Assembly (NCBI GenBank): GCA_045544995.1
Contig: JAZQAE010000119.1
Span: forward strand, 1,857 to 65,856
Source of the DNA: Eubacteriales bacterium
Lineage (GTDB): Bacteria; Bacillota; Clostridia; Oscillospirales; QAKW01
Length of the DNA: 64,000 nt
Direction of reading: 5' to 3'
Shown piece after piece: positions 630 through 63,899 of this stretch. Positions within the stretch are counted from its first letter, which is position 1. The number at the start of each line of letters is the position of its first letter. Position numbers and translations under genes: made by a program. The notes under the pieces were generated by a model that was given only the letters and a program-made list of their open reading frames with translations, did not search any database and was not told the origin of the DNA.

Positions 630-640
630 AAATTGAAATG

Positions 641-678
641 CACCGCAGACCGATCCACATTGGTCTGCGGTGTTTTTA
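641..678 (+). terminator. rho-independent terminator
   Basis: Stem caccgcagacc / ggtctgcggtg followed by ttttt. Confidence 0.7.
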
Positions 679-784
679 TATGCGAAAGTCAATTCCACAC
701 ATTCACAAAGGAAATCTCCCTTGCTACAACATAGGCAAATATGATATAATAACCTCAAATCAAAAGCGCACGGGAGGTCTAACA

Positions 785-1285: not shown

Positions 1286-1306
1286 GGTGGAAAATGGAGA
1301 AATAAG

Positions 1307-2187: not shown

Positions 2188-2197
2188 GGATACTGCG

Positions 2198-2569: not shown

Positions 2570-2581
2570 CACCAAAACACA

Positions 2582-2625
2582 GCCGCCACTCGGTTCAAGC
2601 TCGAGTGGCGGCTTCAGCATTTTTA
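2582..2625 (+). terminator. probable terminator
   Basis: Stem gccgccactcg / cgagtggcggc. The T-run is a few nt downstream. Confidence 0.5.
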
Positions 2626-2722
2626 TAGGTACTGATATATCTGCTCATATGGAAATGGTTACTCAAATTGACAAAAGAAAACAAGAAAACTACTGCGATC
2701 GCAAGATTTTTGCTGAAAACTG

Positions 2723-2751
2723 TTGAGATGTGCGATCAGATGTGGTATATT
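2723..2751 (+). promoter_or_regulatory. sigma-A-like promoter for the HTH controller/methylase operon
   Basis: TTGAGA, 17-nt spacer, TATATT, with a TG extended -10. Confidence 0.45.
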
Positions 2752-2798
2752 AGAAATAATGATACTATTTGAAAATAAAAACTATTTTGAGGTGTATT

Positions 2799-3008
2799 AT
2801 GGCTGCAAGTTACAAGAAGTTATTCAAACTCTTAATCGACTGCGATATGAAAAAGAAAGATTTGGCGGAGAAAGCTGGTGTCAGCATCGCCACCATTACC
2901 AAAATGGGCAAAGACGGCGCCGTTGTCTCAAGCGACGTTCTCGTTAAAATCTGTTCTGCTCTTTGCTGTACAATGGATGATATTGTTGAAATTGTGCCCG
3001 AGAAATAA
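2799..3008 (+). CDS. XRE/Cro-type HTH protein, controller (C-protein)-like
   Basis: MKKKDLAEKAGVSIATITKMGKD helix-turn-helix. About 69 aa. Sits directly upstream of the methyltransferase. RBS gaggtg. Confidence 0.75.
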   Translation: MAASYKKLFKLLIDCDMKKKDLAEKAGVSIATITKMGKDGAVVSSDVLVKICSALCCTMDDIVEIVPEK

Positions 3009-3070
3009 CTGTCCGTTTTATGGGACGATAAAGCTATTATAATTTTTCTGTAAAATGGATGAGGTGTATT

Positions 3071-5990: not shown

Positions 5991-5993
5991 TTC

Positions 5994-8138: not shown

Positions 8139-8139
8139 A

Positions 8140-9075
8140 ATGCTTGAAACGATAAAATGTGCGATAGTTACAACCCCAAAAGATGGCGCAATTTATTTAG
8201 TTAAAAAGTTATCTGAGAACACCGGCTTTTTTGTGACGAATGGTCATTTGTTATATCTTGTATATAACTTTGAAGACATTACGCATAAAAGTATGCAAAC
8301 AGATTACTTGTCACTGAATACCGATGTGGAAATTCACTCTTTCAAGAACAACCAAAAGTTTCCGTCTGGTAAATATAATGTTTTAGATTTTTTGCCTACT
8401 GAAAAAGGCTATGATGAAAACAATTTGGAGTCCTTTGTTAATTTATGCGTTTCTCACACGGAATTGATGGAAGGAAAATCGTTCGTGAAGTTTTTCTTCT
8501 CATTGAGTGAGTTGTTCCAGGATCCGAAAAGTCAGGAATATAAAAATCTTGTGGGCTTTTTTGGGGAATTATCCTTTTTGAAGTTTCTTTGCGAAAACAC
8601 CTCGTTAGACTTATCTGATCGCTGGCATAAGGGCGGTAGCAAAGACAAGTATGAGATTACATTAGAAACAAAGAATCTGGAAATTAAAACAACCGCAGCT
8701 TTTGATGAAGAAGTAACTATAAAGCATAGTCAGTTGTTTAATGCAGACCAGAATTATTTGGTTGTGGTTTGTATTGAGGAGAATAGCGCTGGACAAACTT
8801 TGAATCAACTCATTAGTGATATGCAGAAAGACCCAAGTCATTATAATAATTATAATTTTGCGCTAAATGTCCAACGGGAAAAAATGCGAGTGTCTCCTGT
8901 TGAAGCCGAAAGTAGGATCTTTTCTGTTAAAGGTATCGTTATTTACAAAGCAGAAGATATTGACCCGTTTGGAGAAATTCCGGATAGCGTTTCTCACCTT
9001 ACTTATAAGCTGGATTTGCTTGACAAGAAATATTTACCACTAAATTGTTGGGAAAAGGAGTTTAATGATGTTTAA
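8140..9075 (+). CDS. PD-(D/E)XK-motif (restriction-endonuclease-fold) protein
   Basis: GELSFL ... SKDKYEI ... LEIKT fits a D...ExK core. Sits 1 nt after the Z1 stop codon. Confidence 0.7.
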   Translation: MLETIKCAIVTTPKDGAIYLVKKLSENTGFFVTNGHLLYLVYNFEDITHKSMQTDYLSLNTDVEIHSFKNNQKFPSGKYNVLDFLPTEKGYDENNLESFVNLCVSHTELMEGKSFVKFFFSLSELFQDPKSQEYKNLVGFFGELSFLKFLCENTSLDLSDRWHKGGSKDKYEITLETKNLEIKTTAAFDEEVTIKHSQLFNADQNYLVVVCIEENSAGQTLNQLISDMQKDPSHYNNYNFALNVQREKMRVSPVEAESRIFSVKGIVIYKAEDIDPFGEIPDSVSHLTYKLDLLDKKYLPLNCWEKEFNDV

Positions 9076-9370
9076 GACTTATGATTTGTTTGACCATAGA
9101 AATATAAATGATCTGGTACCTGAAATAGTTTACTATTATCTATTCAAGGGATTAAGTTTAACAGCCATTGAAGTGAAATTATTTAAAACTGAAGATTATC
9201 ACGGCTGGCTTAGCAAAACCTTTCTAAATTACTATGGCATTGATACAGAAAAAGAAAACAAAGGCATTTATGCAGATAAAACGGTTCCAGAAGTGGTAGA
9301 AGAACTTTATAAAAGTTCTAATATTGCTCACGTGCGTGTTGCTAAACTCTTGAAAGAAAAGTATCTGTGA
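9065..9370 (+). CDS. hypothetical 101-aa protein
   Basis: Overlaps the upstream stop codon. RBS aaggag. No recognised family. A possible small HTH around GLSLTAIEVKLF is weak. Confidence 0.6.
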   Translation: MMFKTYDLFDHRNINDLVPEIVYYYLFKGLSLTAIEVKLFKTEDYHGWLSKTFLNYYGIDTEKENKGIYADKTVPEVVEELYKSSNIAHVRVAKLLKEKYL

Positions 9371-9372
9371 TT

Positions 9373-9786
9373 ATGATAAAAGAAGTAATTCACGATCCGA
9401 TTTTTCTTGGAGTTAAATCGGAGGCGGCGACAAAAGAAGATTTGCAGGTGGCACAGGATTTATTGGACACGTTGATTGCCAATAAGGACGGCTGCGTTGG
9501 AATAGCGGCGAATATGATCGGTGCGCGCAAGCGGATCATTGTTTTTGATAATGAGGGTACATATATGACGATGTTTAACCCTGAAATTATCAAAAAGTCC
9601 GGGCCGTACGACACTGAGGAAGGTTGTCTTTCTCTTCTAGGTGGTCCCCGCCCGTGTAAGCGATATAAATCCATCAAAGTCCAGTGGCAAACCGCCGATT
9701 TTCAAACTCGTATTAAAACCTTCACCGGTTGGTCAGCACAGATCATTCAGCATGAGATTGATCATTGTAACGGGATTTTAATTTAG
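9373..9786 (+). CDS. def: peptide deformylase paralogue (short form)
   Basis: Motifs GIAANMIG, EGCLS and QHEIDH. About 137 aa. Starts 3 nt after the upstream stop codon. Confidence 0.85.
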   Translation: MIKEVIHDPIFLGVKSEAATKEDLQVAQDLLDTLIANKDGCVGIAANMIGARKRIIVFDNEGTYMTMFNPEIIKKSGPYDTEEGCLSLLGGPRPCKRYKSIKVQWQTADFQTRIKTFTGWSAQIIQHEIDHCNGILI

Positions 9787-9798
9787 AGGTGTACCCAC

Positions 9799-10665
9799 AT
9801 GAACAAAAAAGCCATAGAGAAGTTTCATAAAACTTGTATAGAATCGAACACTGTTGAATTGGAAAGATTATGGAATAATGCATCTCCAAAAACATTGGTG
9901 AAGTTCTATCCAGCTCGGTATTTACCTGATGGTCATAATTATTCTGTGGACAGCATCATTAATAAAAAATTATGGATTTCTTCTCCTCGACAGTTTAATG
10001 ATCCTTTTGACAGTGTGATGAATATAGATTATCGACCTGAATTATCGGTGCTAGCATCGCAAGTTATGGTAGACTTATTTGGAGAACAGAGGGCTCATGA
10101 ATTGATGGACACTTCCATCTTTAAAGCTGCGATTCAGTCGGCACATATACAAATTCAAACCGGATTGGCTCAACGGAATTCAGAAATAGAACAAGGCGTT
10201 TTAGTTTCATGCTTTACAGAAAAAGAGAATATTAGTTCCACATGTATGTGGGCGCATTATGCCGATAACCACTCTGGATTTTGTGCGGAATTTGAATTTA
10301 ACGATATCAAGAATGTTGGTGATTACGGTTGTCTTCCAATTAAATACTCAGATGAGTATATTTTACATGACAACCCTTCCTCATTGCAGGAGGGTATAGA
10401 GTTTTTGTTAAATTTAGTTTTCACGAAATCTAAATCGTGGAAAAACGAAAAAGAATGGAGAATCATACGGCTTCAAGAAGAAGTCAATAGCAATGGGGAA
10501 TTGATTGATTTTGTCTTGCCAAAGAGTATTTATTTGGGCTGTAAAGTTAAAGATAGATTAAAGAAAGATCTTTGCTCATTCTGTCGTGAGAATAAAATAC
10601 CAATATATCAAATGAGTTTAAAACCGGGAAGTTTTAATATAAAAAAAGAAAAACTCGATGTTTAA
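9799..10665 (+). CDS. DUF2971-family protein
   Basis: MWAHYADNHSGFCAEF is the signature block I associate with DUF2971. RBS gaggtg. Confidence 0.7.
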   Translation: MNKKAIEKFHKTCIESNTVELERLWNNASPKTLVKFYPARYLPDGHNYSVDSIINKKLWISSPRQFNDPFDSVMNIDYRPELSVLASQVMVDLFGEQRAHELMDTSIFKAAIQSAHIQIQTGLAQRNSEIEQGVLVSCFTEKENISSTCMWAHYADNHSGFCAEFEFNDIKNVGDYGCLPIKYSDEYILHDNPSSLQEGIEFLLNLVFTKSKSWKNEKEWRIIRLQEEVNSNGELIDFVLPKSIYLGCKVKDRLKKDLCSFCRENKIPIYQMSLKPGSFNIKKEKLDV

Positions 10666-11089: not shown

Positions 11090-11461
11090 ATGGAATTTAA
11101 TTTCGACTTTACCTATCTTAAAAATGGCGCTCCGATAGTGACTTTGAGCTCATTGGGTATTGCATTCAATAAAGGTGCTGTTGATTTACTTGGCGCTCCG
11201 GAACAAATCAATGTTGGCTTTGATGAAGAAAAATGCGCCATAGGTGTCCGCAAGCATGATCCAACCAGTAATGCACCCGTTTATGATTTCGCTTCACGTG
11301 TAAAAAATGATTGGGTTCGCATTGGAGCCAAGGATTTTATGCGCTATTTATCAAAGGTAAGCAGAATTGATTTTCTAACAAAAGCTAAGCAATTCCTTCC
11401 TGAATTTGATGAGAACACAAAAACCTTAATCATTCAGGTTGATGAATTGCATGCTAAATAG
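11090..11461 (+). CDS. hypothetical 123-aa protein
   Basis: RBS gaggtgg. Own promoter and terminator. The N-terminal beta-rich VTLSSLGIAFNKGAVDLLG segment is vaguely AbrB/SpoVT-like; this is a weak resemblance. Confidence 0.65.
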   Translation: MEFNFDFTYLKNGAPIVTLSSLGIAFNKGAVDLLGAPEQINVGFDEEKCAIGVRKHDPTSNAPVYDFASRVKNDWVRIGAKDFMRYLSKVSRIDFLTKAKQFLPEFDENTKTLIIQVDELHAK

Positions 11462-11482
11462 GTACAAAACAGAAAAAGAAAA

Positions 11483-11525
11483 AAGCAATATTTTACGACT
11501 GGTACTCGTAAAATATTGCTTTCTG
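11483..11525 (+). terminator. probable terminator
   Basis: 15-bp stem aagcaatattttacg / cgtaaaatattgctt. Short T-run. Confidence 0.55.
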
Positions 11526-11687
11526 TGCCAATGCAAAGAACAACGGAACGATACTTAGCATTATTTCAACACATGATAATAATATCACGTTTTGATTTTT
11601 TTTGCAAGAGGGTTTATTTTGTGTTAATGATTCTTTTTGGCACAATATCTTGATTCTGTTTGTAAATAAATTTGAAAGGTGATTTTT

Positions 11688-12593
11688 ATGAAAATCAGAA
11701 AAACAATAATTCGAAACCCAGAACCATATCTTGCAGAAGTTGGAGTTGGCGAAGACTTCTATGTAGTTGCCGTAAATGTTTCTACAAAGAAGAACATTTT
11801 CGAACGATATGGGCTATCCACTGACGGTAAACTGAGGGTACCGATTGGCAGAGGTAATGCAACTCGTTTTAATGCAGATGGTAAGTTTGTAGTCAACCGC
11901 AAACTACCCAAAGTAGAAAAAGTCTTTGAACGTGCGTATCATATCATAGATTGGCACGGTGACGATCACTACGGAACGTGCTTTCAACGACGTATGTGTT
12001 ATCAAAAGGATTATATTTTTCCTCCTAATGTTGGCTTTTTCTATGAAGAGAACTGCTTATTTTCGGAGAAAATGAATAACACAGCCAACAATTATAAAAA
12101 CATCAAATCAGCAATTAATGTTGCCTTAGAGATGTTTGGAGAGTGTGAAATATGGTCGAAGGATAAGTCACCTATTATCCCTAACATACCTGAAATAACC
12201 GTCCCGTGGGAAATACTTCGCAAGGGGACCAAAGATTCAGCTGCTTGGGATAAATATTTAAATAACACCCTAAAAGGGAAAACCAAATCGCAGCAAACAA
12301 TAATTCGTAATCGCCACGAATTCATTCATGATTTAAATCCTAGCTATAGGGTGTTAGGTTCACAGAATTTTTATGGCTATGTTGTTTACGCGTTTGAAGA
12401 TGAAAACCTTTTCGTTTTTGAGTGTAATAGCATAAATAATGCCACTTACTTTTTCAAGGGCGATTGGAAAGAAGTTTCGCAATTAAGTAAGACACAAATC
12501 TTAACTGGGAATCTTCAGTACGCTCGAGTTTTTCACACTGAAAATTGGCGTGAGAAAGTTGAAAAACTCATTCTCTCCAAAAAGGAGGTGTAA
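11688..12593 (+). CDS. hypothetical 301-aa protein
   Basis: ATG after aaaggtga. No family recognised. Confidence 0.7.
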   Translation: MKIRKTIIRNPEPYLAEVGVGEDFYVVAVNVSTKKNIFERYGLSTDGKLRVPIGRGNATRFNADGKFVVNRKLPKVEKVFERAYHIIDWHGDDHYGTCFQRRMCYQKDYIFPPNVGFFYEENCLFSEKMNNTANNYKNIKSAINVALEMFGECEIWSKDKSPIIPNIPEITVPWEILRKGTKDSAAWDKYLNNTLKGKTKSQQTIIRNRHEFIHDLNPSYRVLGSQNFYGYVVYAFEDENLFVFECNSINNATYFFKGDWKEVSQLSKTQILTGNLQYARVFHTENWREKVEKLILSKKEV

Positions 12594-12595
12594 TA

Positions 12596-12820
12596 ATGGG
12601 TAAGAATCAACATGTTACTCATCGTCCCGATGGAAACTGGCAGGTGAAAGGCGCAGGAAATTCCAAGGCTACATTTATAACCTCAACGCAAAAAGAAGCT
12701 ATTAAAATAGCCACCGGAATTGCTAAGAGCCAAAAATCCGAACTATTAATTCACGGAAAAAACGGAAGAATTCGAGAAAAGAATTCGTATGGCAACGATA
12801 ACTTTCCGCCGAAAGGATAA
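12596..12820 (+). CDS. DUF2188-family small protein
   Basis: HVTHRPDGNWQVKGAGNSKA...TQKEAI..A..IA.....ELLIHGKNGRIREKNSYGND.FPPKG matches the DUF2188 pattern. RBS aggaggtg. Confidence 0.8.
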   Translation: MGKNQHVTHRPDGNWQVKGAGNSKATFITSTQKEAIKIATGIAKSQKSELLIHGKNGRIREKNSYGNDNFPPKG

Positions 12821-12889
12821 GTTAAAGCAAAAACTGTTGTGTACCAGGCAACACTTCCTGCTTTTTAACGGCACCCAATAAGGACTGAA

Positions 12890-12932
12890 CATCTCCGCAT
12901 AACATATTCAAATGTTATGCGGAGATGTTTTC
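12890..12932 (+). terminator. rho-independent terminator
   Basis: 16-bp stem catctccgcataacat / atgttatgcggagatg followed by tttt. Confidence 0.75.
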
Positions 12933-13028
12933 TTTCACCCTTTTTCACATTCTTTCGACAAAAAAGTACGTTTTATCGTACACTACTTATTTTATAATAG
13001 AATCATAAAATAAAGGAGTGTGATAAAA

Positions 13029-13817
13029 ATGTCAAAAGATTTACTTGCCATGGACCGATTGACGACGATGGAGGAACTGAAAAAGTTCTTTAAGGAGAAC
13101 GACTGGACGAGCATGAAGATGGATGACCCGGCTCAGAGAACGGCGGAGGAACGGGCCGAGGTTGCGTATGTAGTCGGTGTAATGGACAAGGAGTTTGAAA
13201 AGCAAGCTCGTAAGAAGGGACGGAAATCTGCCAAGAAGTATTACGGCAAAGATAATCCGTTGATTGCTTTGCAGACAAATACCGAGGATTTGGTTGCGAG
13301 CGCGGTCGTTAAGATTGCCAACGATGATGCGTTGTTAGACGGTGTTCTCTCGCAGTTTGATTTCACCGATCCGGATCTTGACAAGAAAGCGGACGCGTTT
13401 TTGCACAACGCGGTGGATACGATGCTCAACGTAATGGATTACGAGCAGATGGCAGCGATCATTCACGAGGATTCCAGCGAAGAAGATTTCAACACCAGCA
13501 TCGAAAACAACTTCCGATACAAAGATCACATTCGCCGTGTGGAACATACCGATGCGAAAACCGAAAACATTCTCTGCCCTGACCCAGAAGCCAAACTTAG
13601 AGAAGCAGAAACTTCAGTAGAGGATGAAGCGTTGCAAAACGTTTTGGCAGAACAGTTTATGGCAACGCTTGACGAAACCGATAAGAAAATATTCGCGATG
13701 AAACGCCTTGGCTACACGCAAAAAGATATCGCCGAAGCGGTTGGGTTTAGCGGTAATGCAGCCGTTTCAAAACGGCTCGCCATCATGAAAGAAAACTTCC
13801 ATAAAATGCTCCAATAA
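13029..13817 (+). CDS. sigma-70 region-4-like HTH protein (MGE regulator)
   Basis: C-terminal KKIFAMKRLGYTQKDIAEAVGFSGNAAVSKRL resembles a sigma region 4 / LuxR-type HTH. Confidence 0.65.
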   Translation: MSKDLLAMDRLTTMEELKKFFKENDWTSMKMDDPAQRTAEERAEVAYVVGVMDKEFEKQARKKGRKSAKKYYGKDNPLIALQTNTEDLVASAVVKIANDDALLDGVLSQFDFTDPDLDKKADAFLHNAVDTMLNVMDYEQMAAIIHEDSSEEDFNTSIENNFRYKDHIRRVEHTDAKTENILCPDPEAKLREAETSVEDEALQNVLAEQFMATLDETDKKIFAMKRLGYTQKDIAEAVGFSGNAAVSKRLAIMKENFHKMLQ

Positions 13818-13893
13818 AAAAATTTTAGAAATTTTTAAATTTTATGAATATTTTGTATATACTTCCCGCGTTACATAGTAAAGGGGTAAAAGA

Positions 13894-13930
13894 CCCGCAC
13901 TCATCAATTTGAAGAGTGCGGGATTTTTTA
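13894..13930 (+). terminator. rho-independent terminator
   Basis: Stem cccgcactc / gagtgcggg followed by attttttat. Confidence 0.7.
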
Positions 13931-14125
13931 TGCCCAAAATCACGAAAAGGAAGTAACAAAATGTTCTTAACGGACAGGCTCAAAGAGCCTTAGCGGGGAT
14001 GGCATCACTTCGTGATGGCATCGGTCTCGCAAGCATCGTGTTTGGATATCCCCAAACACACCCTTTAGGGGTTTCACCCCTAACACCCTGAATAAAAAAT
14101 AAATGAAGAAAGAAGGAAAAACATT

Positions 14126-14437
14126 ATGGCACATAAAATGAAAGGTTTTATTTTGAGACTCTCGGATGAGGAATTTGCAAAGCTGAACAAGCGGGCGAAA
14201 AACACCGGTTTGACGCGACAGGATTATCTCCGCTATTTATGCAGAGGTATTCGTTTCAAACCTTGCCCCGACGAAGAACTGAAGGAAGTGGGCGCAGAGA
14301 TTTGCGCTGTCAGCAACGAAATCAATCGCATCGCAATGGTGGCAAATTCCACCGGTGTAGTCGATGAACTCGCTTACGTGAAAGCCTTGGAGCGGTTGCG
14401 CATCGCCCTGGATAAAATCGTTGAGTATGACCCGTAA
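14126..14437 (+). CDS. MobC-like ribbon-helix-helix relaxosome accessory protein
   Basis: KGFILRLSDEEFAKLNKRAKNTGLTRQDYLRYL is a typical MobC/RHH N-terminus. Confidence 0.7.
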   Translation: MAHKMKGFILRLSDEEFAKLNKRAKNTGLTRQDYLRYLCRGIRFKPCPDEELKEVGAEICAVSNEINRIAMVANSTGVVDELAYVKALERLRIALDKIVEYDP

Positions 14438-14446
14438 GGAGCGCGT

Positions 14447-14770
14447 ATGAATCATAAGCAAAAAGGATTTATCTTTCGGTTGTCCGACGAGGATTTTGCC
14501 GATCTGAACCACAAGGTCAAAATGACGCAGATGGATCGACAGAAATATATGCGCATGATTATCGGAGGCGGCAAACCCAGCGCGGCTCCATCGGAGGGAC
14601 TACGCGTGATCCTTCACCTGTTTAATAAAATCCTCAACAACCTATGGCAGTTGGAACAGGTATATAGGAAACGTGGCGATCTGAGATGGACGCGATTCAA
14701 GCACGACTACGATAATCTACAACGATTGGAATGTGACTTTATTGGTCGTCGCGTAAAATGGAAAATTTAG
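14447..14770 (+). CDS. MobC-like ribbon-helix-helix protein (paralogue 2)
   Basis: KGFIFRLSDEDFADLNHKVKMTQMDRQKYMRMI. Confidence 0.7.
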   Translation: MNHKQKGFIFRLSDEDFADLNHKVKMTQMDRQKYMRMIIGGGKPSAAPSEGLRVILHLFNKILNNLWQLEQVYRKRGDLRWTRFKHDYDNLQRLECDFIGRRVKWKI

Positions 14771-14967
14771 AAAAGGAGAAAAGTATTTTGAAAGACAGTA
14801 TTGTGATTTTTCGGGCAAGTGAGCTCGAAAAACAACGCATTCAGCAACAAGCAAATCGATACGGTATGACCGTATCCAAGTATTTACGGCAATTGGCAGT
14901 GTCCGATGAGAAGGCAGGACTCTTGGAGGGTCCTGCCTTCCGTTTTGCCCAAAAGAAGAAGGAGTGA
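14758..14967 (+). CDS. short RHH protein (paralogue 3)
   Basis: IVIFRASELEKQRIQQQANRYGMTVSKYLRQLA. An alternative TTG start at 14788 after aaggag is possible. Confidence 0.55.
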   Translation: MENLEKEKSILKDSIVIFRASELEKQRIQQQANRYGMTVSKYLRQLAVSDEKAGLLEGPAFRFAQKKKE

Positions 14968-14971
14968 TTAA

Positions 14972-15895
14972 ATGAGTAGTAAATTTAAGTCTGTAGAAGG
15001 GATGCTGACTAGCGTGGATAGTTTGTTTACCACGCAGGCGGAGCGGGATGACATGGCAAAGCCGAAAGTTGAGGAGATTAGCTTAGATCTCATTGACGGG
15101 TTTGAGGGGCATCCCTTTTCGGTGAAGGACGACGAGGATATGCAAAAGCTTTTGCAGAGCATTGCCGAGCGTGGCGTGTTGGTACCGTGTTTGGCGCGGC
15201 AAAACGGAGAGCGGTATGAACTGATTTCCGGACATCGGCGCAAGGCGGCGTGCCGGACGCTTGGGATATCCACCTTGCCTGTCATTGTCAAGGATATGTC
15301 CCGCGAGGAAGCCATTATCACGATGGTGGACAGCAATGTGCAACGAGAGCATATTCTGCCCAGTGAAAAAGCAATGGCTTATAAGATGAAGATGGATGCA
15401 CTTACACACCAAGGTAAAACTTCTCGCCAAGTTGGCGAGAAGTGGAGCGTAACACAAGTGAGCGAAGCCACAAACGATAGCGAACGGCAAGTCCAACGCT
15501 ATATCCGTTTAACCCATCTCAACAAACCGCTGTTGGATATGGTAGATGAGGGGCGGATTGCGTTCACACCGGCGGTGGAGCTGTCGTATCTCAACGAGAT
15601 CGAGCAACAGGATTTGGTGGAGGCTATTGCCGTTTGCGAGTGCACCCCGAATCTGTCGCAGGCGTGCCGATTAAAAGCTATCAGTCAAACCGACAAGGGC
15701 TTAAGCCCCGAAGACATCACCGCCATTATGAGCGAGCAAAAAGCCAACCAAAAACCGATGTTTAAGATTCGGCTTGAAAAGCTACGTGAGGTGGCACCCA
15801 AGATCAAGGACAACGAGTTTGAGTCATTCGTCATCAAGGCGTGCGACCACTATTACAAGTACCAACAAAAAGAGAAAAAGAGAGAAGCGAGGTAA
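14972..15895 (+). CDS. ParB/Srx N-terminal-domain protein
   Basis: HPFSV...LLQSIAERGVLVPCLAR...YELISGHRRKAACRTLG is a ParB-box motif. Confidence 0.85.
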   Translation: MSSKFKSVEGMLTSVDSLFTTQAERDDMAKPKVEEISLDLIDGFEGHPFSVKDDEDMQKLLQSIAERGVLVPCLARQNGERYELISGHRRKAACRTLGISTLPVIVKDMSREEAIITMVDSNVQREHILPSEKAMAYKMKMDALTHQGKTSRQVGEKWSVTQVSEATNDSERQVQRYIRLTHLNKPLLDMVDEGRIAFTPAVELSYLNEIEQQDLVEAIAVCECTPNLSQACRLKAISQTDKGLSPEDITAIMSEQKANQKPMFKIRLEKLREVAPKIKDNEFESFVIKACDHYYKYQQKEKKREAR

Positions 15896-15900
15896 TAAAA

Positions 15901-16254
15901 ATGAACGTTTTAAGTGTATTGAAATTCTTTATGATCTACGTCATCACTGACAAGCGCGGTGAGTACAAATTCATCGTCAAGGGGCGCGAGGTGGAGGCAA
16001 GCTTTACCGAACAGCCCAACCCTGACATCGTCCCGCAACTGAAAACCATTCTGTTAGGCGATGCCAATCCCCCTGCTTACAAGAGAGCCAAGCGTGAGAA
16101 AAAAGAGGAGCGCACCTGGAACATTGATATGGATCGCGTGCGGTCCGCCATCCCCGCCGAGATTCCCGACGAGGAGATGGAGGCTTATACCGAAAAGGCG
16201 CTGGAGTATTACCAGCAATTGTTGCAAAAAAAGAAAGCGAGGGATGCTCGATGA
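15901..16254 (+). CDS. hypothetical protein
   Basis: ATG 5 nt after the ParB-like stop codon. No family recognised. Confidence 0.6.
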   Translation: MNVLSVLKFFMIYVITDKRGEYKFIVKGREVEASFTEQPNPDIVPQLKTILLGDANPPAYKRAKREKKEERTWNIDMDRVRSAIPAEIPDEEMEAYTEKALEYYQQLLQKKKARDAR

Positions 16255-16336
16255 ATCGGCACATTCATTCGCTTAGGTCGCACAATCGACAAAACGGGTA
16301 CCCCCTCGTTACAATTAGCACAAAGGAGGTGATGTA

Positions 16337-17293
16337 ATGGCAAAACGAGTATGCTGTTTGTACCGCGTGTCCACCGGCAAACAGGTGGACTACAACGGCA
16401 ACAACGAAGCCGATATCCCGATGCAACGCAAAGCGTGCCACAAATTCGCGCTGGAAAAGGGCTGGAACATCGTGCACGAGGAACAGGAGGACGGTGTTTC
16501 AGGTCATAAGATTCGCGCCGAAAACCTCGATAAAATCCAAATCATCAAGGAACTGGCACGCAAGAAACAATTCGATATTCTGCTGGTGTTTATGTTCGAC
16601 CGTATCGGCAGAATCGCGGACGAAACACCCTTTGTGGTGGAATGGTTTGTCAAAAACGGCGTGGAGGTATGGAGTACCCAAGAGGGCGAGCAACGGTTCG
16701 ACAACCACACCGACAAGCTCTTAAACTATATCCGCTTTTGGCAAGCGGACGGCGAGAGCGAGAAAACCTCGGTGCGTACCAAAACGAGCTTGGGTCAGAT
16801 TGTGGAGTCGGGTCACTACAAGGGCGGCGGTGCCGCCTATGGCTACGACCTTGTGAAAAACGGGCGCACCAATAAGAAAAAGCACGAACTCTTTGACCTG
16901 CAAGTGAATGCCGATTACAGCAAGGCGAGTGATAACCTCGCCTTGCTCAAAGCCGAGGTGGTGAAATCCATTCGGGGTGAGGGTTCCTTTTCTACCGAGA
17001 TGCTGTCGGATCTCATTCGCGAAGCGGAGAGCGAATGTGCGCATTTGGAGGAACAATGCGACGATGCAAGGCGGGACGTGAAAGACACCGAAAATCTGCT
17101 CCGTCAGCTCAGCGACCATTTCGACGAATTGATCTCTTGGGCGGAACTGTACGACAGCGCCAGCTTGGAGAAAAAGAAGATGGTGGTCAACGCCCTCATT
17201 AACCGCATTGAGGTGTTCCGCGATTATAAAGTTAAGATTGATTTTAATTTTGACTTTGAGCAATTTACGCAAGGCTTAGACATCGCAGCATAA
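16337..17293 (+). CDS. large serine recombinase with an apparent in-frame internal deletion (probably inactive)
   Basis: The resolvase catalytic domain is intact (YRVSTGKQ, DGVSG, FDRIGR). After YGYDLV the sequence jumps straight to the C-terminal coiled-coil. No recombinase or zinc-ribbon domain is visible. Length is 318 aa versus the roughly 500+ aa usual for this family. Confidence 0.7.
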   Translation: MAKRVCCLYRVSTGKQVDYNGNNEADIPMQRKACHKFALEKGWNIVHEEQEDGVSGHKIRAENLDKIQIIKELARKKQFDILLVFMFDRIGRIADETPFVVEWFVKNGVEVWSTQEGEQRFDNHTDKLLNYIRFWQADGESEKTSVRTKTSLGQIVESGHYKGGGAAYGYDLVKNGRTNKKKHELFDLQVNADYSKASDNLALLKAEVVKSIRGEGSFSTEMLSDLIREAESECAHLEEQCDDARRDVKDTENLLRQLSDHFDELISWAELYDSASLEKKKMVVNALINRIEVFRDYKVKIDFNFDFEQFTQGLDIAA

Positions 17294-18056: not shown

Positions 18057-18737
18057 TTATTGGTTTTCGCTCTGGCGCACTTTCATTTTTTGCCAGCTGA
18101 GATAGCCGTAGATATCGTTGACCAAAAAGGCAACAAAGCACACGACAACCGAGATATAGCGAGTGTCAGACACGCTCGCCAACACCCACAAAACAATCAA
18201 CACCACGTCGTTGGAAGCGTAGGCAAGGGCAAAGAGAGGACTTCTGCGGAAAGTGAGATAGACAGCGACAAAGCTTGTGGTAACGGAAAGGGTGCTGGGG
18301 AGGATATTGGCGGTATGGAAATGCGCCAAGATGAAATAAAACACAGCGGTAACAAGGGTGGTGCCGACCCACATCCATACCGTTTCCGCTTTGCTGATGG
18401 TGTTAACCTTAACCTCCGCTTTGTTGCCCTTATAGGGATTGCGGAGCCACGAGATGAGGGCAAAGACCGCCATCGGCATAGTCATGCCGAGATAGGTGAT
18501 CATTTCTCCGTAATAAGCAAAGCTATAGGAAATGATGCCATACAGCAAGCTGAACACCACCATCAGCACTTGCCCGAAAGGGTTTCCTTTGGCATTAAAG
18601 ATCAGCGAGGTAACGCCGATGAGAGAGGCGATCAAGGTCAGAATGTTTTCACGGTCAAAAAGGCAAAAGGAGCCCACGATCAACAAGACAGACGAAGACC
18701 ATAACGTAATTTCTAATTTTGAAAAATAGTGTTTCAA
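18057..18737 (-). CDS. pnuC: PnuC-family (nicotinamide riboside-type) transporter, copy 1
   Basis: LIFNAKGNPFGQ, YGEMITYLGMTMPMA and WLRNPY are PnuC hallmarks. TTG start 7 nt after ggagg, homologous to the copy-2 start. Confidence 0.85.
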   Translation of the reverse strand: MKHYFSKLEITLWSSSVLLIVGSFCLFDRENILTLIASLIGVTSLIFNAKGNPFGQVLMVVFSLLYGIISYSFAYYGEMITYLGMTMPMAVFALISWLRNPYKGNKAEVKVNTISKAETVWMWVGTTLVTAVFYFILAHFHTANILPSTLSVTTSFVAVYLTFRRSPLFALAYASNDVVLIVLWVLASVSDTRYISVVVCFVAFLVNDIYGYLSWQKMKVRQSENQ

Positions 18738-18749
18738 GGCAAGTCCTCC

Positions 18750-18835
18750 AAAAAAATAAGCATCCGTACACACGTCTTCAAAGACCTAACGACGTGCAAA
18801 CGAATGCATTAGCATTTCACTACCCGGTGGCAGTT
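18750..18835 (-). promoter_or_regulatory. conserved structured leader (terminator/antiterminator) upstream of pnuC copy 1
   Basis: About 87% identical by eye to 30963-31048. Long hairpin plus U-run, with a competing small hairpin aatgc/gcatt. The cacGtc/gaCgtg versus cacAtc/gaTgtg change is compensatory. Confidence 0.6.
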
Positions 18836-19141: not shown

Positions 19142-19288
19142 AAAAAAACATGAGGCACCCCATAGGGAATGCCTCATGTACAAAATCCTTGTATATGACT
19201 TCCTACGACGGCATTATCCGCATCAGGTTAAAGGGTCAAAGTTTGATTACTTTCTCTCAGCCTGCAAATACAAACTCCCCCGTGTTTA
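19142..19288 (-). promoter_or_regulatory. TPP (THI-box) riboswitch with a terminator expression platform
   Basis: Minus strand reads cacgggggag...ggctgagag...accctttaacctgatgcggataatgccgtcgtaggaag, which is the TPP aptamer consensus. It is followed by a 9-10-bp hairpin (19148-19179) and a T7 run. Confidence 0.85.
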
Positions 19289-19447
19289 TTTTATTAATTA
19301 TAATACACTTTTTTTCAATAATTGCATGTGCTTCTGATAACGGTTAGATATACTCTTATTTATTGAATTAATAATGCAACAAAAATAATCATATCGGTTG
19401 ATAGTTTATGCATGCATTTAGATATCTGTACGCTTGAATAGTACTTT

Positions 19448-19876
19448 TTATAAACTGTATTGTCTTATTGCATTTACAATACTGTTAGTATCCCAATTAA
19501 CCATCTTATCAGCCACACGCATGACTTCAACAGGCATAATTTGAGCACCGCGTGGTTTTATTGCAATGATGGGCTTCCCCATTTGTTTTGCTAGATTAAT
19601 TTCACACTGCATCCATTTTCGATAATTGGTATACATTCCGGAAATAACCAAAACGCAACTACAAGGTTGGATTTTTCGTTCTATTGCAGCTTTAATTTGA
19701 TATGCAGAATTAACATCGGTTGCATCAAGATTATGTAATGGCTTATCTTTTGGTGCTGAATAGTTACAGTAACTAAAGTTATTGGCTAAATCTAAAAGAT
19801 TAATCAGGCGACTATATTCATCGCCATACTTCCATGCATGGCTTATAAAAATATTGTATTGTCTTAAATATGGCAT
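19448..19876 (-). CDS. TIR-like domain protein (DUF1863/ThsB-like)
   Basis: The N-terminal YNIFISHAWKYGDEY and a conserved Glu in WMQCEINLA fit a stand-alone bacterial TIR. Confidence 0.7.
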   Translation of the reverse strand: MPYLRQYNIFISHAWKYGDEYSRLINLLDLANNFSYCNYSAPKDKPLHNLDATDVNSAYQIKAAIERKIQPCSCVLVISGMYTNYRKWMQCEINLAKQMGKPIIAIKPRGAQIMPVEVMRVADKMVNWDTNSIVNAIRQYSL

Positions 19877-19880
19877 ATAA

Positions 19881-20306
19881 TTACTCCTTTTTTATATATT
19901 CTTTTTGGTTAAGGCTTTTCCACGAATTGCGTTCGGATTCCATAATACTTTCACAGTTAATTATAAATGCATCCATAGAAGCATCTTTATATCTATCCGC
20001 AGAACTTAAAAACAAAACCTTTTCCTTTTTCAGTTTTTCATACGTGTCCCGATAATTGATCCAAGTTTCCTTGGTTTTCCTTAATAATTGTAAGCTTGAT
20101 AATATGGAGGCAGCTGCACTCATTGTAGCAATAATGTATTTTAGAAACCCAGAAGTATCAAGTCCGATTGATAAAACGGGAATAATTGCATTAAAAACAA
20201 TCATTATACTTGACAAAATATAATATTCTCGACGAAGCCTGACTGATTTGTTGTGATAATAATCCATTTGTTTTTCGAGTCGCTCTTTGATGTAATCAAA
20301 TTCCAT
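19881..20306 (-). CDS. SLATT/DUF4231-like two-TM protein
   Basis: N-terminal helix, then two TM helices (YYILSSIMIVFNAIIPVLSI, YIIATMSAAASILSSL), then a WINYRDTYEKLKKE tail. A consensus promoter inside the longer tracked ORF supports the 20306 start. Confidence 0.6.
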   Translation of the reverse strand: MEFDYIKERLEKQMDYYHNKSVRLRREYYILSSIMIVFNAIIPVLSIGLDTSGFLKYIIATMSAAASILSSLQLLRKTKETWINYRDTYEKLKKEKVLFLSSADRYKDASMDAFIINCESIMESERNSWKSLNQKEYIKKE

Positions 20307-20322
20307 TAAATCACCCTTTATA

Positions 20323-20351
20323 ATTGTACAACATACAGTGGCGATTGTCAA
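20323..20351 (-). promoter_or_regulatory. sigma-A promoter for the SLATT-TIR pair
   Basis: Minus strand: TTGACA, 17-nt spacer, TACAAT. Confidence 0.55.
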
Positions 20352-20474
20352 CGAGAAACACAACATATCGTGATTTTTATTATCTCGACAAAGATGGGCT
20401 CAATTCTTTTAGTGTTAACGTTTCTACGGTAAAATGAAAATAGTTTTTATGTGCAGTAGCATTGATTAGTTAAG

Positions 20475-20625
20475 GCGGTAACTCTGCGTTCTCGGTTTTC
20501 GTCGACCGCTCCGAGCGGTGACGACGAAACCGTCGTACTCGAGACACGGCAGTCCCCAAAGCCTATCGCGGCTTTAGGGCTGCCTCAACGAACTTTTTTG
20601 ACAGAGTCAAAAAAGTTCAATCCCG
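20475..20625 (-). repeat. structured repeat copy A (about 150 nt), homologous to 61937-62085
   Basis: Roughly 80-85% identical by eye to copy B. Four stems are maintained by compensatory changes. G-U pairs indicate minus-strand polarity. Confidence 0.6.
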
Positions 20626-20642
20626 CGGGATCTGCGCCAAAA

Positions 20643-20667
20643 CAAAAAGCACACCTTTCGGTGTGCC
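20643..20667 (-). terminator. terminator after tRNA-Ala
   Basis: Stem ggcacacc / ggtgtgc followed by ttttt on the minus strand. Confidence 0.7.
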
Positions 20668-20676
20668 TTTTCGTTT

Positions 20677-20752
<76 letters not shown>

Positions 20753-31739: not shown

Positions 31740-31763
31740 CACCCCGAAGGGTGCTATTTTTTT
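31737..31763 (+). terminator. rho-independent terminator
   Basis: tagcaccc cgaa gggtgcta followed by ttttttt. Confidence 0.8.
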
Positions 31764-31778
31764 GGTGCGGGCGACAGG
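31763..31778 (-). repeat. duplicated 3' end of tRNA-Leu (att-like direct repeat)
   Basis: tggtgcgggcgacagg is identical to 31968-31983. The match extends into the preceding T-run and a similar hairpin. Confidence 0.7.
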
Positions 31779-31933
31779 CCCCGCCTTGCTTCGCAATGCT
31801 GACTGCTTGCCGACCGCTCCGCACTGCTCGCAGTACCCGGCTACGCACCTCGTTGCTAAAAAACAGTCGCACCGGACTGTTTTTCTTAACGCAACGAGCC
31901 TTCTTAAGGTTCAAGTCCTTCCCGATTCAACAC

Positions 31934-31960
31934 AAAACAAAACACCCCCAAAGGGGTGTT
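31934..31960 (-). terminator. terminator after tRNA-Leu
   Basis: acacccc tttg ggggtgt followed by ttttgtttt on the minus strand. Confidence 0.7.
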
Positions 31961-31967
31961 TTTATTT

Positions 31968-61737: not shown

Positions 61738-61810
61738 ACTTTTTCATAAAAATGTTCTTGACAATTCAAAAGGAAATGCTTATAATAATCAAGTGACTTG
61801 AACCATATAT

Positions 61811-61886
61811 AGGGGTATAGCTCAGCTGGTAGAGCAGCGGTCTCCAAAACCGCGTGTCGTGGGTTCGATTCCTACTGCCCCTGCCA
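61811..61886 (+). tRNA. tRNA-Trp (anticodon CCA)
   Basis: Hand-folded cloverleaf. Anticodon loop CUCCAAA, GGTTCGATTCC T-arm, encoded CCA. Confidence 0.93.
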
Positions 61887-61888
61887 CA

Positions 61889-61922
61889 AAAACAGCCTTG
61901 GCTTCTGCCAAGGCTGTTTTTG
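61889..61922 (+). terminator. terminator after tRNA-Trp
   Basis: aacagccttgg cttctg ccaaggctgtt followed by ttt. Confidence 0.8.
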
Positions 61923-61936
61923 TATCATGGGCCTCG

Positions 61937-62085
61937 GAATTGAACTTTTTTGCTTTGCAAAAAAGTTCGTTGAGGCAGCCGTAAAGCCACGATAGGCTTT
62001 GCGGACTGCCGTGTCTCGAGCACGACGGTTTTGCTGCAAACGGCTTGGAGCCGTCGGCAAAAACCGAGAGCGCAGAGTTTCCTGC
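61937..62085 (+). repeat. structured repeat copy B (about 150 nt), homologous to 20475-20625
   Basis: Same order of stems as copy A, with compensatory substitutions. Plus-strand polarity by G-U pairs. Confidence 0.6.
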
Positions 62086-62255
62086 CCCCTAAAGTTTGCA
62101 GGAACTTCCCGATGTTGCAAAGGGGTAGATTCATATCACCCCCCCTGCAGAGTTCCCCATTCTCTTTGTTTTGAAGAAAACTATATACACCTAAACATAT
62201 TTGTGATATTATAAAATTAGGATGCTTCTATTTTGTGTGCGTGTGAGGTTTTACT

Positions 62256-63899
62256 ATGGCGATAAATAAAGTTGAAATCATGAAAAAACTAATACTGGGT
62301 ATAGGTGCTGTTTTATTTATTGGAATTATTATCTTTATAACCCGAGATACTACCGTTGATTTCAGCGGGACAGTTGAAGAAATTAAAAGAAGCGAAGACG
62401 GTAACGTTGCCTATGTTATTTCGGCAATAAACGGGGAACTTGCGATAATAGCTGACGGTAAAACAAAATACACACTTTATTCGGATCAAGAAATATTGGC
62501 AGACTATGTTTCGGTTGGTGATATCATAACCGGGGACTATAGGCTCTTTAATAAAGAGTGTGCAAAAAACATCTGTGTAACCCCACATAGCGGTGCGATT
62601 CAAAACAAGCAATATGCTTACGACAGCGTGGTGTATTCAATCCAACCGACAAGCTTTGTGAAAAAGAAACATATTGCAATAGAGGGTGAAGACAACGTTC
62701 TGTCAGAATATAATTATACTGCGGGAAATACTTGGGGATATCATAGTGATAACAAACTGAATTTTAAGAAGGATATTCTTACAGAGAAGAACTTTGATGA
62801 TTGTATAAAGGATAAGGAACTTGCAAAAAGCATCAGAAAAAATAATCTTAGCGCTTTTGCGGCAAGTGGCACATATCTTTTAGAGCAAAAAAACGGTGAT
62901 GTTTATTACTTCTCTAAAACGCTCCCTGACGGCGATATCAATAAAATTTATAAGCTTAAAGAGGTGGGAGATATTATCTCTGCCGAAAACGTGACTCTTG
63001 AAAAAGATATTGAATCATATTATAATGCCATGGTGTCCGGCGACGATAAAATGCCGAAATTTCAAACACAGATATCGGATCGATGCAAAGCGTATCTCGA
63101 GGGAAAGTTTGCATATCAGCGTGATACTGTTAAGTGGCTTGAACAAACAATTGACAAACCGACCGTCAAGCTTGAACGGGCAATTAAAAACGGTAATGTT
63201 ATTTTCTATACTGCAAGTACAAACTTTAAATATACGGTTCATACCACAACTGAATATGAGCGAAACCATACAGATAGAATTTACGTTTTGGTTGATTCGG
63301 ATGAAAACAAGATCATTGATTGGTATGTTTCGGGTAATCAGTACGAGGAACAAGTGCGAGGGGCAGTGTTTGAATTTGCGGACACTTCTACTTGGCTCGA
63401 AAACAGAACTTTGAATAACGCAGAAACATTTACCGCTCCCGTTTCCAACGAGATTTCTCCTAAGCCTGACTACAATAGAACTTATGTTAGTTACAATAAA
63501 GATACTATTGTCACCGAAGTAATGGGACTTGATTTTTCAACGGTTTATGATCCTCTGACCGACAATTATATAATCAACAACGGTGGAATGGGACAGCCTA
63601 AGGCGATTGATAAAATTGAGGTAACTAATACATATGTAAAGCTTTGGTTTACAAAAGGAAGTACGTTGCATGCGTGGATGACTGTTGATGAAGGTCCCGG
63701 CAGTATAGATGTCAATCAAGGTTATCATAAACAGATAGATGCGACAGGAGAAGCGTATTATCAAAGTTATAATGAATCCACGCCTTCCACTGTGACTTTT
63801 GGGGAAGAAAACGGGCAAGTAACAATGATGTTTAAATTTGATAAGCCGATTAATGATCCGATAACAGATTTCAGAATCAATTCCGGAAAGGTGGATTAA
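62256..63899 (+). CDS. hypothetical membrane-anchored 547-aa protein (AT-rich accessory gene)
   Basis: N-terminal TM (LILGIGAVLFIGIIIFI) followed by a large Asn/Lys/Tyr-rich extracytoplasmic region. No family recognised. Confidence 0.7.
   Translation: MAINKVEIMKKLILGIGAVLFIGIIIFITRDTTVDFSGTVEEIKRSEDGNVAYVISAINGELAIIADGKTKYTLYSDQEILADYVSVGDIITGDYRLFNKECAKNICVTPHSGAIQNKQYAYDSVVYSIQPTSFVKKKHIAIEGEDNVLSEYNYTAGNTWGYHSDNKLNFKKDILTEKNFDDCIKDKELAKSIRKNNLSAFAASGTYLLEQKNGDVYYFSKTLPDGDINKIYKLKEVGDIISAENVTLEKDIESYYNAMVSGDDKMPKFQTQISDRCKAYLEGKFAYQRDTVKWLEQTIDKPTVKLERAIKNGNVIFYTASTNFKYTVHTTTEYERNHTDRIYVLVDSDENKIIDWYVSGNQYEEQVRGAVFEFADTSTWLENRTLNNAETFTAPVSNEISPKPDYNRTYVSYNKDTIVTEVMGLDFSTVYDPLTDNYIINNGGMGQPKAIDKIEVTNTYVKLWFTKGSTLHAWMTVDEGPGSIDVNQGYHKQIDATGEAYYQSYNESTPSTVTFGEENGQVTMMFKFDKPINDPITDFRINSGKVD

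Follow-up and report, generated by a model that had tools for sequence, protein, structure and literature searches.

The 64,000-nt stretch of Eubacteriales DNA analysed in the current study (the window) carries two copies of a structured repeat of about 150 nt, one on the plus strand behind tRNA-Trp (copy B, 61937-62085) and one on the minus strand behind tRNA-Ala-GGC (copy A, 20477-20621). The repeat most likely forms the core of a small, gene-less DNA cassette, which resides at, and is swapped at, the 3' ends of several different tRNA genes, where variable defence or orphan genes begin. Its anatomy, its association with tRNA genes, its conserved structure, its mosaic exchange and its presence or absence between related loci were observed directly in this analysis. 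So far the family has been seen only in a clade of uncultured gut Clostridia; it corresponds to no known RNA family, and resembles miniature mobile repeats and remnants of attachment (att) sites.

The two copies were 86.3% identical over a 146-nt alignment (E = 5e-43), in agreement with a first-pass annotation of this DNA that had aligned them from end to end, and sequence comparison revealed no third full copy within the window. The repeat itself was therefore upheld, while its bounds were not: the conserved core is slightly shorter than had been proposed (Table 1), and the unit as a whole extends on both sides into segments derived from the adjacent tRNA. Folded singly, the copies were more stable than dinucleotide shuffles (z = -6.1 and -6.3), none of 200 shuffles being equally good. 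The proposed context was also borne out, each copy following a tRNA gene with its terminator and preceding AT-rich DNA. The GC content was 34% in the segment with SLATT and TIR genes beyond copy A and 38-39% at 62-64 kb, beyond copy B, compared with about 50-55% in the core genome.

Relatives were located through an exact 18-mer from the core (labels of the form L0xx denote loci in other genomes). The suggestion that the repeat represents a family was supported by nine further full copies in seven metagenome-assembled genomes (MAGs) of Clostridia/Eubacteriales, found at L028, L029 (two copies), L034, L035, L036, L037, L040 and L041. Together with the window copies this gives 11 full copies in eight genomes, with two or three seen per genome; a twelfth copy, in L067, is cut by a contig end, and the remaining 18-mer matches were due to chance. 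A covariance model (R1) built from the 11 full copies was run on about 570 kb of sequence, and recovered these copies, the truncated one in L067, a partial tandem piece in L029 and nothing else. In five loci a contig ends no more than about 500 nt from the element, as expected of a dispersed repeat.

According to Rfam 15, the window contains only its three tRNAs and a thiamine pyrophosphate (TPP) riboswitch at the gathering score, and at E <= 10 both copies gave only weak chance matches (12-21 bits, against thresholds of 35-200). The first-pass annotation, which had matched the repeat to no RNA family, was thus confirmed by search. Sensitive blastn of the unit against phage and plasmid collections gave no match. 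Four pattern scans of IMG/VR yielded chance matches only for the 16- and about 15.5-base patterns (checked by BLAST and the covariance model) and zero matches for those with 19 and 22 specified bases, and a two-anchor pattern in the JGI metagenomes yielded three matches, all of them due to chance and inside coding regions. An orthologous tRNA-Ala locus was also sought through the upstream deacetylase gene; this candidate was discarded, the nearest relative being 63% identical and not syntenic.

The consensus fold of the 11 copies (RNAalifold) consists of a short closing stem and three hairpins, namely P1 (13 bp), P2 (15 bp, one A bulged) and P3, which is composite. All four helices listed in the first-pass annotation are present, and in the larger alignment 95.4% of the cells in 52 pairs are paired. 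The compensatory changes that had been noted between the two window copies now extend to 17 pairs (44 cells) in which both sides have changed. None of 500 shuffles reached the observed pairing or covariation, and slid controls paired only 38-49% of cells. Several unpaired loops and junctions vary little or not at all (GTTGAGGCAG, CTGCCGTGTCTC and GCAGAGT), CTGCCGUGUCUCGAG is a junction within the element, and the P2 loop CGAUA is kept in L037 despite a replaced stem.

A tRNA gene or tRNA fragment precedes ten of the 11 full copies at a distance of 45-60 nt; these copies share the polarity of the tRNA and lie just past its terminator hairpin. Five of these loci have tRNA-Trp, which in one of them is reduced to the 3' half that another island left behind; the others have tRNA-Ala, -Arg, -Tyr (after Thr) or -Pro, or a tRNA truncated by a contig end. 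The eleventh copy (L034) lies behind a protein gene and has retained a Tyr-like inverted arm.

The core is bracketed by copies of the 3' end of its own tRNA, a feature that the first-pass annotation did not contain. About 25 nt before P1 form the reverse complement of the tRNA 3' end (TGG, acceptor, T-stem and T-loop), and right after GCAGAGT follows a direct copy of the T-loop end and the 3' strand of the T-stem. With an inverted arm upstream and a direct arm downstream of the core, the layout is therefore direct, terminator, inverted, core, direct; read in tRNA polarity, the order is tRNA (whose own 3' end is copy #1), terminator, inverted tRNA 3' end (#2), 137-nt core and direct, decaying tRNA 3' end (#3). 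The inverted arm matches the neighbouring tRNA best (TGGCGGAGAG for Pro, TGGTGGGA for Tyr, GCGGGAT for Ala, GAAGAT for Arg), and in L035 and L067 it forms with the tRNA end a perfect palindrome through the acceptor. The direct copies follow their own tRNA in the same way (TTCCTAC for Trp, ATCTTCT for Arg, ATCCAC for Tyr, CCGC..TTA.CT..CAA for Ala). When the arms were permuted over the five tRNA types, with T-loop and CCA excluded, the results were 2/120 for the inverted and 3/120 for the direct arm.

In copy B, terminator hairpin 'A' is the tip of a long palindrome that joins the tRNA-Trp 3' end (#1) to its inverted copy (#2), and the reverse complement of TATCATGGGCCTCGGAATTGAAC reads as T-loop, T-stem and acceptor of tRNA-Trp. 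In copy A, #2 includes a 12-nt inverted match to positions 53-64 of tRNA-Ala. The #2 and #3 arms pair with each other to form the closing stem of the fold; in copy B the TTCC of #3 pairs with the GGAA of #2, closing the core (columns 23-26 with 173-176). A single-stranded DNA (ssDNA) fold of a 306-nt segment, core hairpins included, reached z = -11, and in it the inverted arm is predicted to pair with the tRNA 3' end across the terminator; its predicted pairing with the direct copy across the core is the closing helix of the consensus fold. The sequence TTTTCATTTT(G), common to copy A and the copies at Trp loci, marks the right edge of the conserved unit, and in copy A the SLATT promoter and gene come next. 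The whole unit is about 200-300 nt long and has no conserved open reading frame (ORF), nor were conserved small ORFs seen when the tail was read by eye. A full inverted tRNA gene was considered as insertion target and rejected, because only 3' halves are present.

The conserved fold raises the question of a functional non-coding RNA (ncRNA), which would arise by read-through from the tRNA promoter as a structured RNA of about 150-200 nt and act in cis or in trans, for example through the segment antisense to the tRNA 3' end. Such a role would fit the strong covariation, the conserved loops and junctions, the polarity, which is always that of the tRNA, and the consensus promoter of each window tRNA. 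It is also in line with the strand preference of the consensus fold (-56.3 kcal/mol on the tRNA-sense strand against -46.0 on the reverse) and with 19 G-U cells in 8 columns on the forward strand against 4 A-C cells in 3 columns. The tRNA-sense strand is thus favoured in these models, not proven, since single-sequence folding energies are equal on both strands; the first-pass annotation was too strong in stating that G-U pairs occur only in the tRNA polarity. However, no sigma-70-like promoter was detected in or before either copy; the nearest ones serve the tRNA and the gene that comes next, and immediately before the unit stands a terminator hairpin with its T run. There is no relative in Rfam, the downstream genes differ in every locus, so that the element is not a leader, and the inverted and direct copies of the tRNA end are not explained by an RNA role alone. 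We therefore regard a functional ncRNA as unlikely. Of the three options raised earlier, a free-standing ncRNA gene is the least supported; the description as a structured repeat family tied to tRNA loci was correct.

Comparison of related loci points to exchange of the cassette. Related tRNA-Trp loci were reached through the upstream ROK gene, and between copy B and L028 this gene was 78% identical and the spacer upstream of the tRNA 64%. Identity then rose to 95% (56/59) in the 59 nt of terminator and inverted arm and was 91% in the core, before falling to 62% in the first 45 nt past GCAGAGT, the drop beginning exactly at #3. The excess of the terminator and #2 over the spacer points to recent movement of a block rather than to selection on an RNA, and is a further argument against the ncRNA.

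Grouping of the Trp loci depended on the segment compared. The terminator and inverted arm separate the window, L028 and L040 from L035 and L041; the core groups the window, L028, L040 and L035; the first tail segment groups L028, L040 and L041; and the second groups L028, L035 and L041. Judged from these alignments, the differing groupings indicate a mosaic in which modules have been shuffled between lineages. The breakpoints coincide with tRNA-derived segments, and the sequences of L028 and L040 part directly behind the tail end TTTTCATTTTG. The earlier suggestion of an element like a miniature inverted-repeat transposable element (MITE) or a repetitive extragenic palindromic (REP) sequence was thus half right, in that the unit behaves like an exchangeable cassette and is more similar between species than its flanks.

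The ROK-linked tRNA-Trp loci display the full range of intermediates, and five of them (L046, L047, L051, L052 and L058) lack the core. In L051 and L052 the tRNA is followed by a plain terminator with no arms, and no direct repeat of the tRNA 3' end was found at the cassette-less loci L046 and L051. In L047, a stack of hairpin modules of about 430 nt leads to a third terminator preceded by 20 nt that repeat the tRNA-Trp 3' end exactly and in direct orientation; in L056, tRNA-Trp is directly followed by this third terminator, inside which the contig ends. The module GATGTTGCAAAGGGGTA in the older remnant behind copy B is the one that ends the L047 stack, and occurs also in L058 and in L055, a mosaic that has only the last 48 nt of the core. 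L058 shows the minimal direct-inverted-direct structure with no core, its junctions lying at the terminator loop and at a CACGCG/CGCGTG palindrome. Its displaced direct copy has the T-stem variant CTTAC and its working tRNA CCTAC, as expected if an incoming block had replaced the tRNA end.

Template switching creates and maintains hairpins, and L058 could be read as its product. Snap-back at the palindromic stem-loops of terminator and tRNA would yield a tandem inversion duplication with no mobility or function, and the hairpins would be maintained by the same templated repair. Apart from L058, the centring of the inverted arm on the terminator loop speaks for this process. It leaves unexplained, however, why a single 137-nt core, its unpaired junctions invariant, is present at five or more tRNAs in eight genomes, why the block exceeds its flanks in identity and how the modules were shuffled. 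Moreover, the same terminator is not duplicated after the third copy, and cores at different tRNAs are homologous, contrary to expectation. Passive template switching as the origin of the unit and of its hairpins thus appears highly improbable.

A few observations were made at these and other loci in passing. Right after tRNA-Trp and its terminator, L047 (11150-11330; also L048) has about six short hairpins of differing sequence (e.g. CCGTTCC-TGCC-GGAACGG and CCACC-TGCG-GTGGG), separated by ATATCAT/GATATC-like linkers with a period of about 28-30 nt, which looks like another structured module. In L029 (158-330), the 3' half of the element, the tail and a terminator-like hairpin are repeated in tandem (unit of about 170 nt) after the full copy behind tRNA-Tyr. 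A small hairpin with conserved loop AGAACCGTCCCC and varying, yet complementary stems (CAATCA/TGATTG vs AGACAG/CTGTCT) occurs just downstream of elements in L029 (58-69, 228-239, 2186-2197 and 2230-2241) and L040 (276-287), and is absent from the window.

A related, distinct element lies behind tRNA-Leu (TAG) and had likewise been missed in the first-pass annotation. It contains an inverted T-loop/T-stem copy (13/13, E = 8e-4), a direct repeat of 16 nt that matches the tRNA-Leu 3' end exactly (16/16, E = 1e-5) and a hairpin-rich segment of about 130 nt that has CGGAGCGGTCGGCAA in common with the core. R1 did not detect this unit, and its overall fold is unremarkable (z = -1.4). It thus has the anatomy of the cassette and a different core segment. 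With this insert behind tRNA-Leu, a unit of this kind is present at each of the three tRNAs in the window.

What follows the unit varies from one locus to the next. This DNA encodes SLATT and a ThsB-like TIR protein after copy A, a 547-aa protein with no Pfam match after copy B, radical-SAM, HD and SPFH proteins in L040, a tyrosine integrase in L041 and a DsbH-like protein in L035; reading by eye added a likely BirA gene in L029 and a likely LytTR regulator in L036. Given these differing neighbours and the drop in GC content at both window copies, the unit belongs to the tRNA side, and the variable DNA starts after its tail. A distal repeat that would close the SLATT/TIR segment or the 62-64 kb segment was sought, and none was found.

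These neighbours bear on the possibility that the unit is a scar, or the attL-proximal arm, of larger integrase islands at tRNA genes, its core being leftover arm DNA with protein-binding sites. AT-rich accessory DNA does begin directly after the unit at both window copies, and tRNA-Trp is an insertion hotspot in relatives, as shown by L046 with its TIR/relaxase island and L035 with its attR-like half tRNA. Stacks of decayed elements at the ends of tRNA genes are well documented (PMC5704250), and the tail in L041 is followed after about 500 nt by a tyrosine integrase. Nevertheless, the unit is constant while the DNA beyond it differs at every locus, one core is found with five or more different tRNA ends, and arm-type binding sites would not yield compensatory hairpins with conserved loops. 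The integrase itself, which is convergent and the sole nearby candidate, has homologues (66-81% identity) on contigs with neither a tRNA nor the element within 6 kb, and no homologue was found in the window and the other loci. It was rejected as a dedicated partner on these two grounds and, judging by its context, most likely belongs to a separate island. An origin as an island scar is accordingly quite unlikely, and the earlier idea of a conserved arm of tRNA-proximal islands was half right: the unit stays with the tRNA, and the DNA beyond it differs from genome to genome.

The two relatives mentioned above have features of their own. The island in L046, a close relative (11137-16795; ROK gene 91% identical), starts immediately after the CCA of tRNA-Trp and has TIR, DUF2207_C, MOB relaxase and NikA-like genes, and no cassette was present in the L046 sequence examined. 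In L035, the tRNA-Trp in front of the element (3351-3395) is reduced to its 3' half, beginning with the anticodon loop, and RhuM, SWIM and DUF2971 genes lie upstream (451-3205). Read from this arrangement, the tRNA half resembles an attR end, as if another island had inserted in the anticodon loop and the cassette had stayed outside it.

The features of the window are collected in Table 1. The SLATT/TIR module comprises two genes, SLATT (DUF4231/SLATT_1) and a ThsB-like TIR, under a TTGACA-17-TACAAT promoter of their own, and sits between copy A and the TPP riboswitch. The riboswitch, just beyond the module, lies upstream of a gene of the PnuC/nicotinamide mononucleotide (NMN)-transporter family, which probably encodes a thiamine-related transporter. 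Further away, an AT-rich block (32-38% GC) of defence type encodes a C5 DNA methylase, a HATPase_c_3 protein, a Z1/ResIII helicase-like protein, DUF4420 (PD-(D/E)XK) and DUF2971 proteins; a ParB-like gene and a serine recombinase gene come next. A similar Z1/DUF4420/AIPR/methylase set is present in L061.

Table 1. Positions of tRNA-associated units and neighbouring features in the window (#1 and #3, direct copies of the tRNA 3' end; #2, inverted copy)
Feature	Position	Strand	Basis or remark
tRNA-Trp promoter	61758-61786		perfect TTGACA-17-TATAAT
tRNA-Trp (CCA)	61811-61886	+	ARAGORN; Rfam tRNA 65 bits; T-loop-to-CCA part is #1 in the triplication
Terminator hairpin 'A' (CAAAAACAGCCTTGGC-TTCT-GCCAAGGCTGTTTTTG)	61887-61922	+	sequence and ssDNA fold
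#2 of copy B, inverted and partly decayed tRNA-Trp 3' end (TATCATGGGCCTCGGAATTGAAC)	61923-61945	+	alignment; own tRNA is the best match
Core of copy B (137 nt, conserved)	61942-62078	+	ends in GCGCAGAGT; R1 169.8 bits
Copy B hairpins	P1 61942-61968; P2 61974-62010; composite P3 62015-62078	+	fold
#3 of copy B, direct, decayed tRNA-Trp T-loop end/T-stem/acceptor (TTCCT..GCCCCCT), with small hairpin CCTGC..GCAGG	62079-62102	+
Second, older att-like remnant: GATGTTGCAAAGGGGTA, then decayed tRNA-Trp 3' end (GATTCATATCACCCCCCCTGCA)	62111-62149	+
547-aa ORF	62256-63899	+	no Pfam match; DNA of 38-39% GC; N-terminal hydrophobic segment resembling a signal or membrane anchor
tRNA-Ala promoter	20811-20783		perfect (TTGACA-17-TATAAT)
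tRNA-Ala (GGC), #1 for copy A	20677-20752	-	ARAGORN; Rfam
tRNA-Ala terminator hairpin (GGCACACC-GAAA-GGTGTGC, then T run)	20640-20676	-	read from sequence; terminator scan called this hairpin on the + strand only (20649-20666)
#2 of copy A (TGGCGCAGATCCCGCGGGATTGAAC), inverted tRNA-Ala 3' end	20615-20639	-	ATCCCGC T-loop/T-stem kept
Core of copy A (138 nt)	20481-20618	-	R1 157.8 bits
#3 of copy A (TACCGCCTTAACTAATCAA, about CCGCTTATCTCCACCAA of tRNA-Ala) and tail up to TTTTCATTTT	20431-20480	-
SLATT and TIR genes	19448-20366	-
TPP riboswitch	19183-19291	-	63.5 bits
PnuC/NMN-transporter-family gene	18057-18773	-
Element behind tRNA-Leu (TAG)	31740-31967	-	terminator 1, inverted arm, hairpin-rich segment, direct repeat, terminator 2
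Inverted T-loop/T-stem copy of the tRNA-Leu element	31907-31919
Direct 16-nt repeat of the tRNA-Leu element	31763-31778
Defence-type block	3059-10665 and 14972-17293	+
Serine recombinase (resolvase domain)	16337-17293		3 kb from copy A

With roughly even confidence, we take the unit to be a non-autonomous cassette that recombines site-specifically, with the core as its cis-acting and probably single-strand-folded part. A recombinase, a single-stranded form and any excision are what we infer, and the following steps are put forward as a model. The cassette would recombine site-specifically in the T-loop/T-stem of the tRNA gene, and a recombinase encoded elsewhere would act in trans, in the manner of integrative elements that have left cis-mobilizable remnants. 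The incoming cassette would restore the tRNA end and supply its own terminator, and the old tRNA end would be displaced downstream and then decay. Later arrivals, either other cassettes or islands of the SLATT/TIR or integrase/relaxase kind, would stack at the same place. The core and the inverted arm would form the cis-acting part: in a single strand, the inverted arm could pair with the direct tRNA end, giving a duplex copy of the target capped by a three-hairpin junction. By analogy, the folded strand would be comparable to attP(+) of CTX phage or attC of integrons, and such a single-stranded form would explain why structure is conserved over sequence and why one strand is favoured.

Precedents exist for individual steps. 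Tandem accretion and cis-mobilizable remnants have been described at tRNA 3' ends (PMC5704250). The single strand of CTX phage carries two inverted att sites, which fold to give the active attP(+) and remain beside the new dif site after integration (PMC3442271). The attC site of integrons, too, is recognised in the form of a folded single strand (PMC6393395).

Several points weigh against a site-specifically recombining cassette. Neither an excised form nor a precise empty site for the core itself in a close relative was found, no recombinase was linked to the element by sequence, and no autonomous parent turned up in the phage, plasmid, viral or genome collections searched. Where the core is present, decay has left a short direct copy, of which no more than 5-11 nt can be recognised. 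Since copies were found through an exact word, conservation of that 18-nt stretch is biased, and the copy number and host range are lower bounds. The presence of the core at five or more tRNA species, with arms matching each, goes beyond ordinary att recombination. A classical tyrosine-integrase element targets one tRNA, and the many targets seen here need either rewriting of the arm at each move or recombination through the universal T-loop sequence.

The former possibility would make the cassette a miniature mobile element that rewrites its inverted target copy with every move, a nucleic-acid-guided system with a programmable arm on a three-hairpin scaffold and a recombinase in trans. The arm may in that case act as folded single-stranded DNA or as RNA. 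We consider this guided version very doubtful. If it were true that the cassette moves between tRNAs by copying its target into the inverted arm, this would be a new way of choosing insertion sites, and could become a compact scaffold for site-specific insertion.

The ends of tRNA genes are classic landing pads of genomic islands, and a conserved structured cassette between the tRNA and the variable DNA represents a hidden layer at these hotspots in uncultured gut Clostridia. It also accounts for contig breaks beside tRNAs in MAGs, and calls for caution in annotation, because a covarying set of hairpins need not be an ncRNA gene. The covariance model can now be used to annotate the family, together with the diagnostic motifs GTTGAGGCAG, CTGCCGTGTCTCGAG and GCAGAGT.

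Among known systems, group II introns, retrons, IS110 bridge RNAs and IS200/IS605 omega RNAs were considered and rejected, as no reverse transcriptase, TnpB or IS110 gene was among the scanned proteins and there was no Rfam match. The RNAs linked to tRNAs, i.e. small RNAs from 3' external transcribed spacers, T-box leaders and tRNA-like structures, resemble the element in lying next to a tRNA in the same polarity, in having a segment complementary to the tRNA 3' end and in their cloverleaf-like four-way junction. Unlike them, the element follows a terminator, matches nothing in Rfam, has no fixed downstream gene and, in core-bearing copies, no acceptor mimic ending in NCCA; neither window copy has the promoter of its own that an independent ncRNA gene would possess.

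Tandem inversion duplications share the order direct-inverted-direct of the tRNA 3' half and the junctions at palindromes of the terminator and tRNA stems. L058 conforms to this type, and the window copies show the same order with the core inserted; the difference lies in the conserved foreign core between the inverted and direct copies, which recurs at many tRNAs and in many genomes.

The MITE, REP, REPIN, ERIC and Correia elements are likewise short, non-coding, multi-copy hairpins that lie between genes just after terminators and break short-read assemblies. In contrast to these, the cassette has a strict specificity for the tRNA 3' flank, a fixed polarity and a low copy number, and a 137-nt three-hairpin core at two or three copies per genome does not look REP-like. 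Its flanks are copies of the target, inverted and direct, rather than the fixed terminal inverted repeats and short target-site duplication by which a MITE with its autonomous transposon would be recognised, and the inverted flanks vary with the neighbouring tRNA. Neither a transposase-bearing relative nor a related RAYT was found in the collections searched.

A closer likeness of anatomy is offered by cis-mobilizable elements (CIMEs) and other decayed elements of the ICESt1/ICESt3 type (PMC5704250), which are gene-less, lack an integrase of their own, are bounded by direct repeats of the tRNA 3' end while the tRNA stays intact, and are stacked at one site beside incoming islands. Bracketing direct repeats were found here too, exact in the related units (20 nt in L047, 16 nt at tRNA-Leu) and decayed in the core-bearing copies, and no genes for integration or transfer lie inside. 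The cassette departs from a CIME in its size, in its extra inverted copy of the target and in its conserved three-hairpin core. Nor does it have a single target with descent from an integrative and conjugative or integrative mobilizable element and its cognate integrase; the core occurs at Trp, Ala, Arg, Tyr and Pro tRNAs, and no such parent was found.

The boxes R''/L''-L'/R' and the extrahelical bases of attC were not recognised, and no recombinase site could be defined. The target also differs from that of CTX attP(+) (PMC3442271) and integron attC (PMC6393395, PMC5027507), being the end of a tRNA gene instead of dif or attI, and no Xer or IntI partner was linked to the cassette by sequence. 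The likeness to these sites would lie in the design: inverted copies of the target could fold back within one strand to rebuild a duplex site, structure is kept over sequence, and one strand is favoured. With CTX attP(+) the cassette also shares the order seen after integration, namely direct site, short loop, inverted site, element body and direct site.

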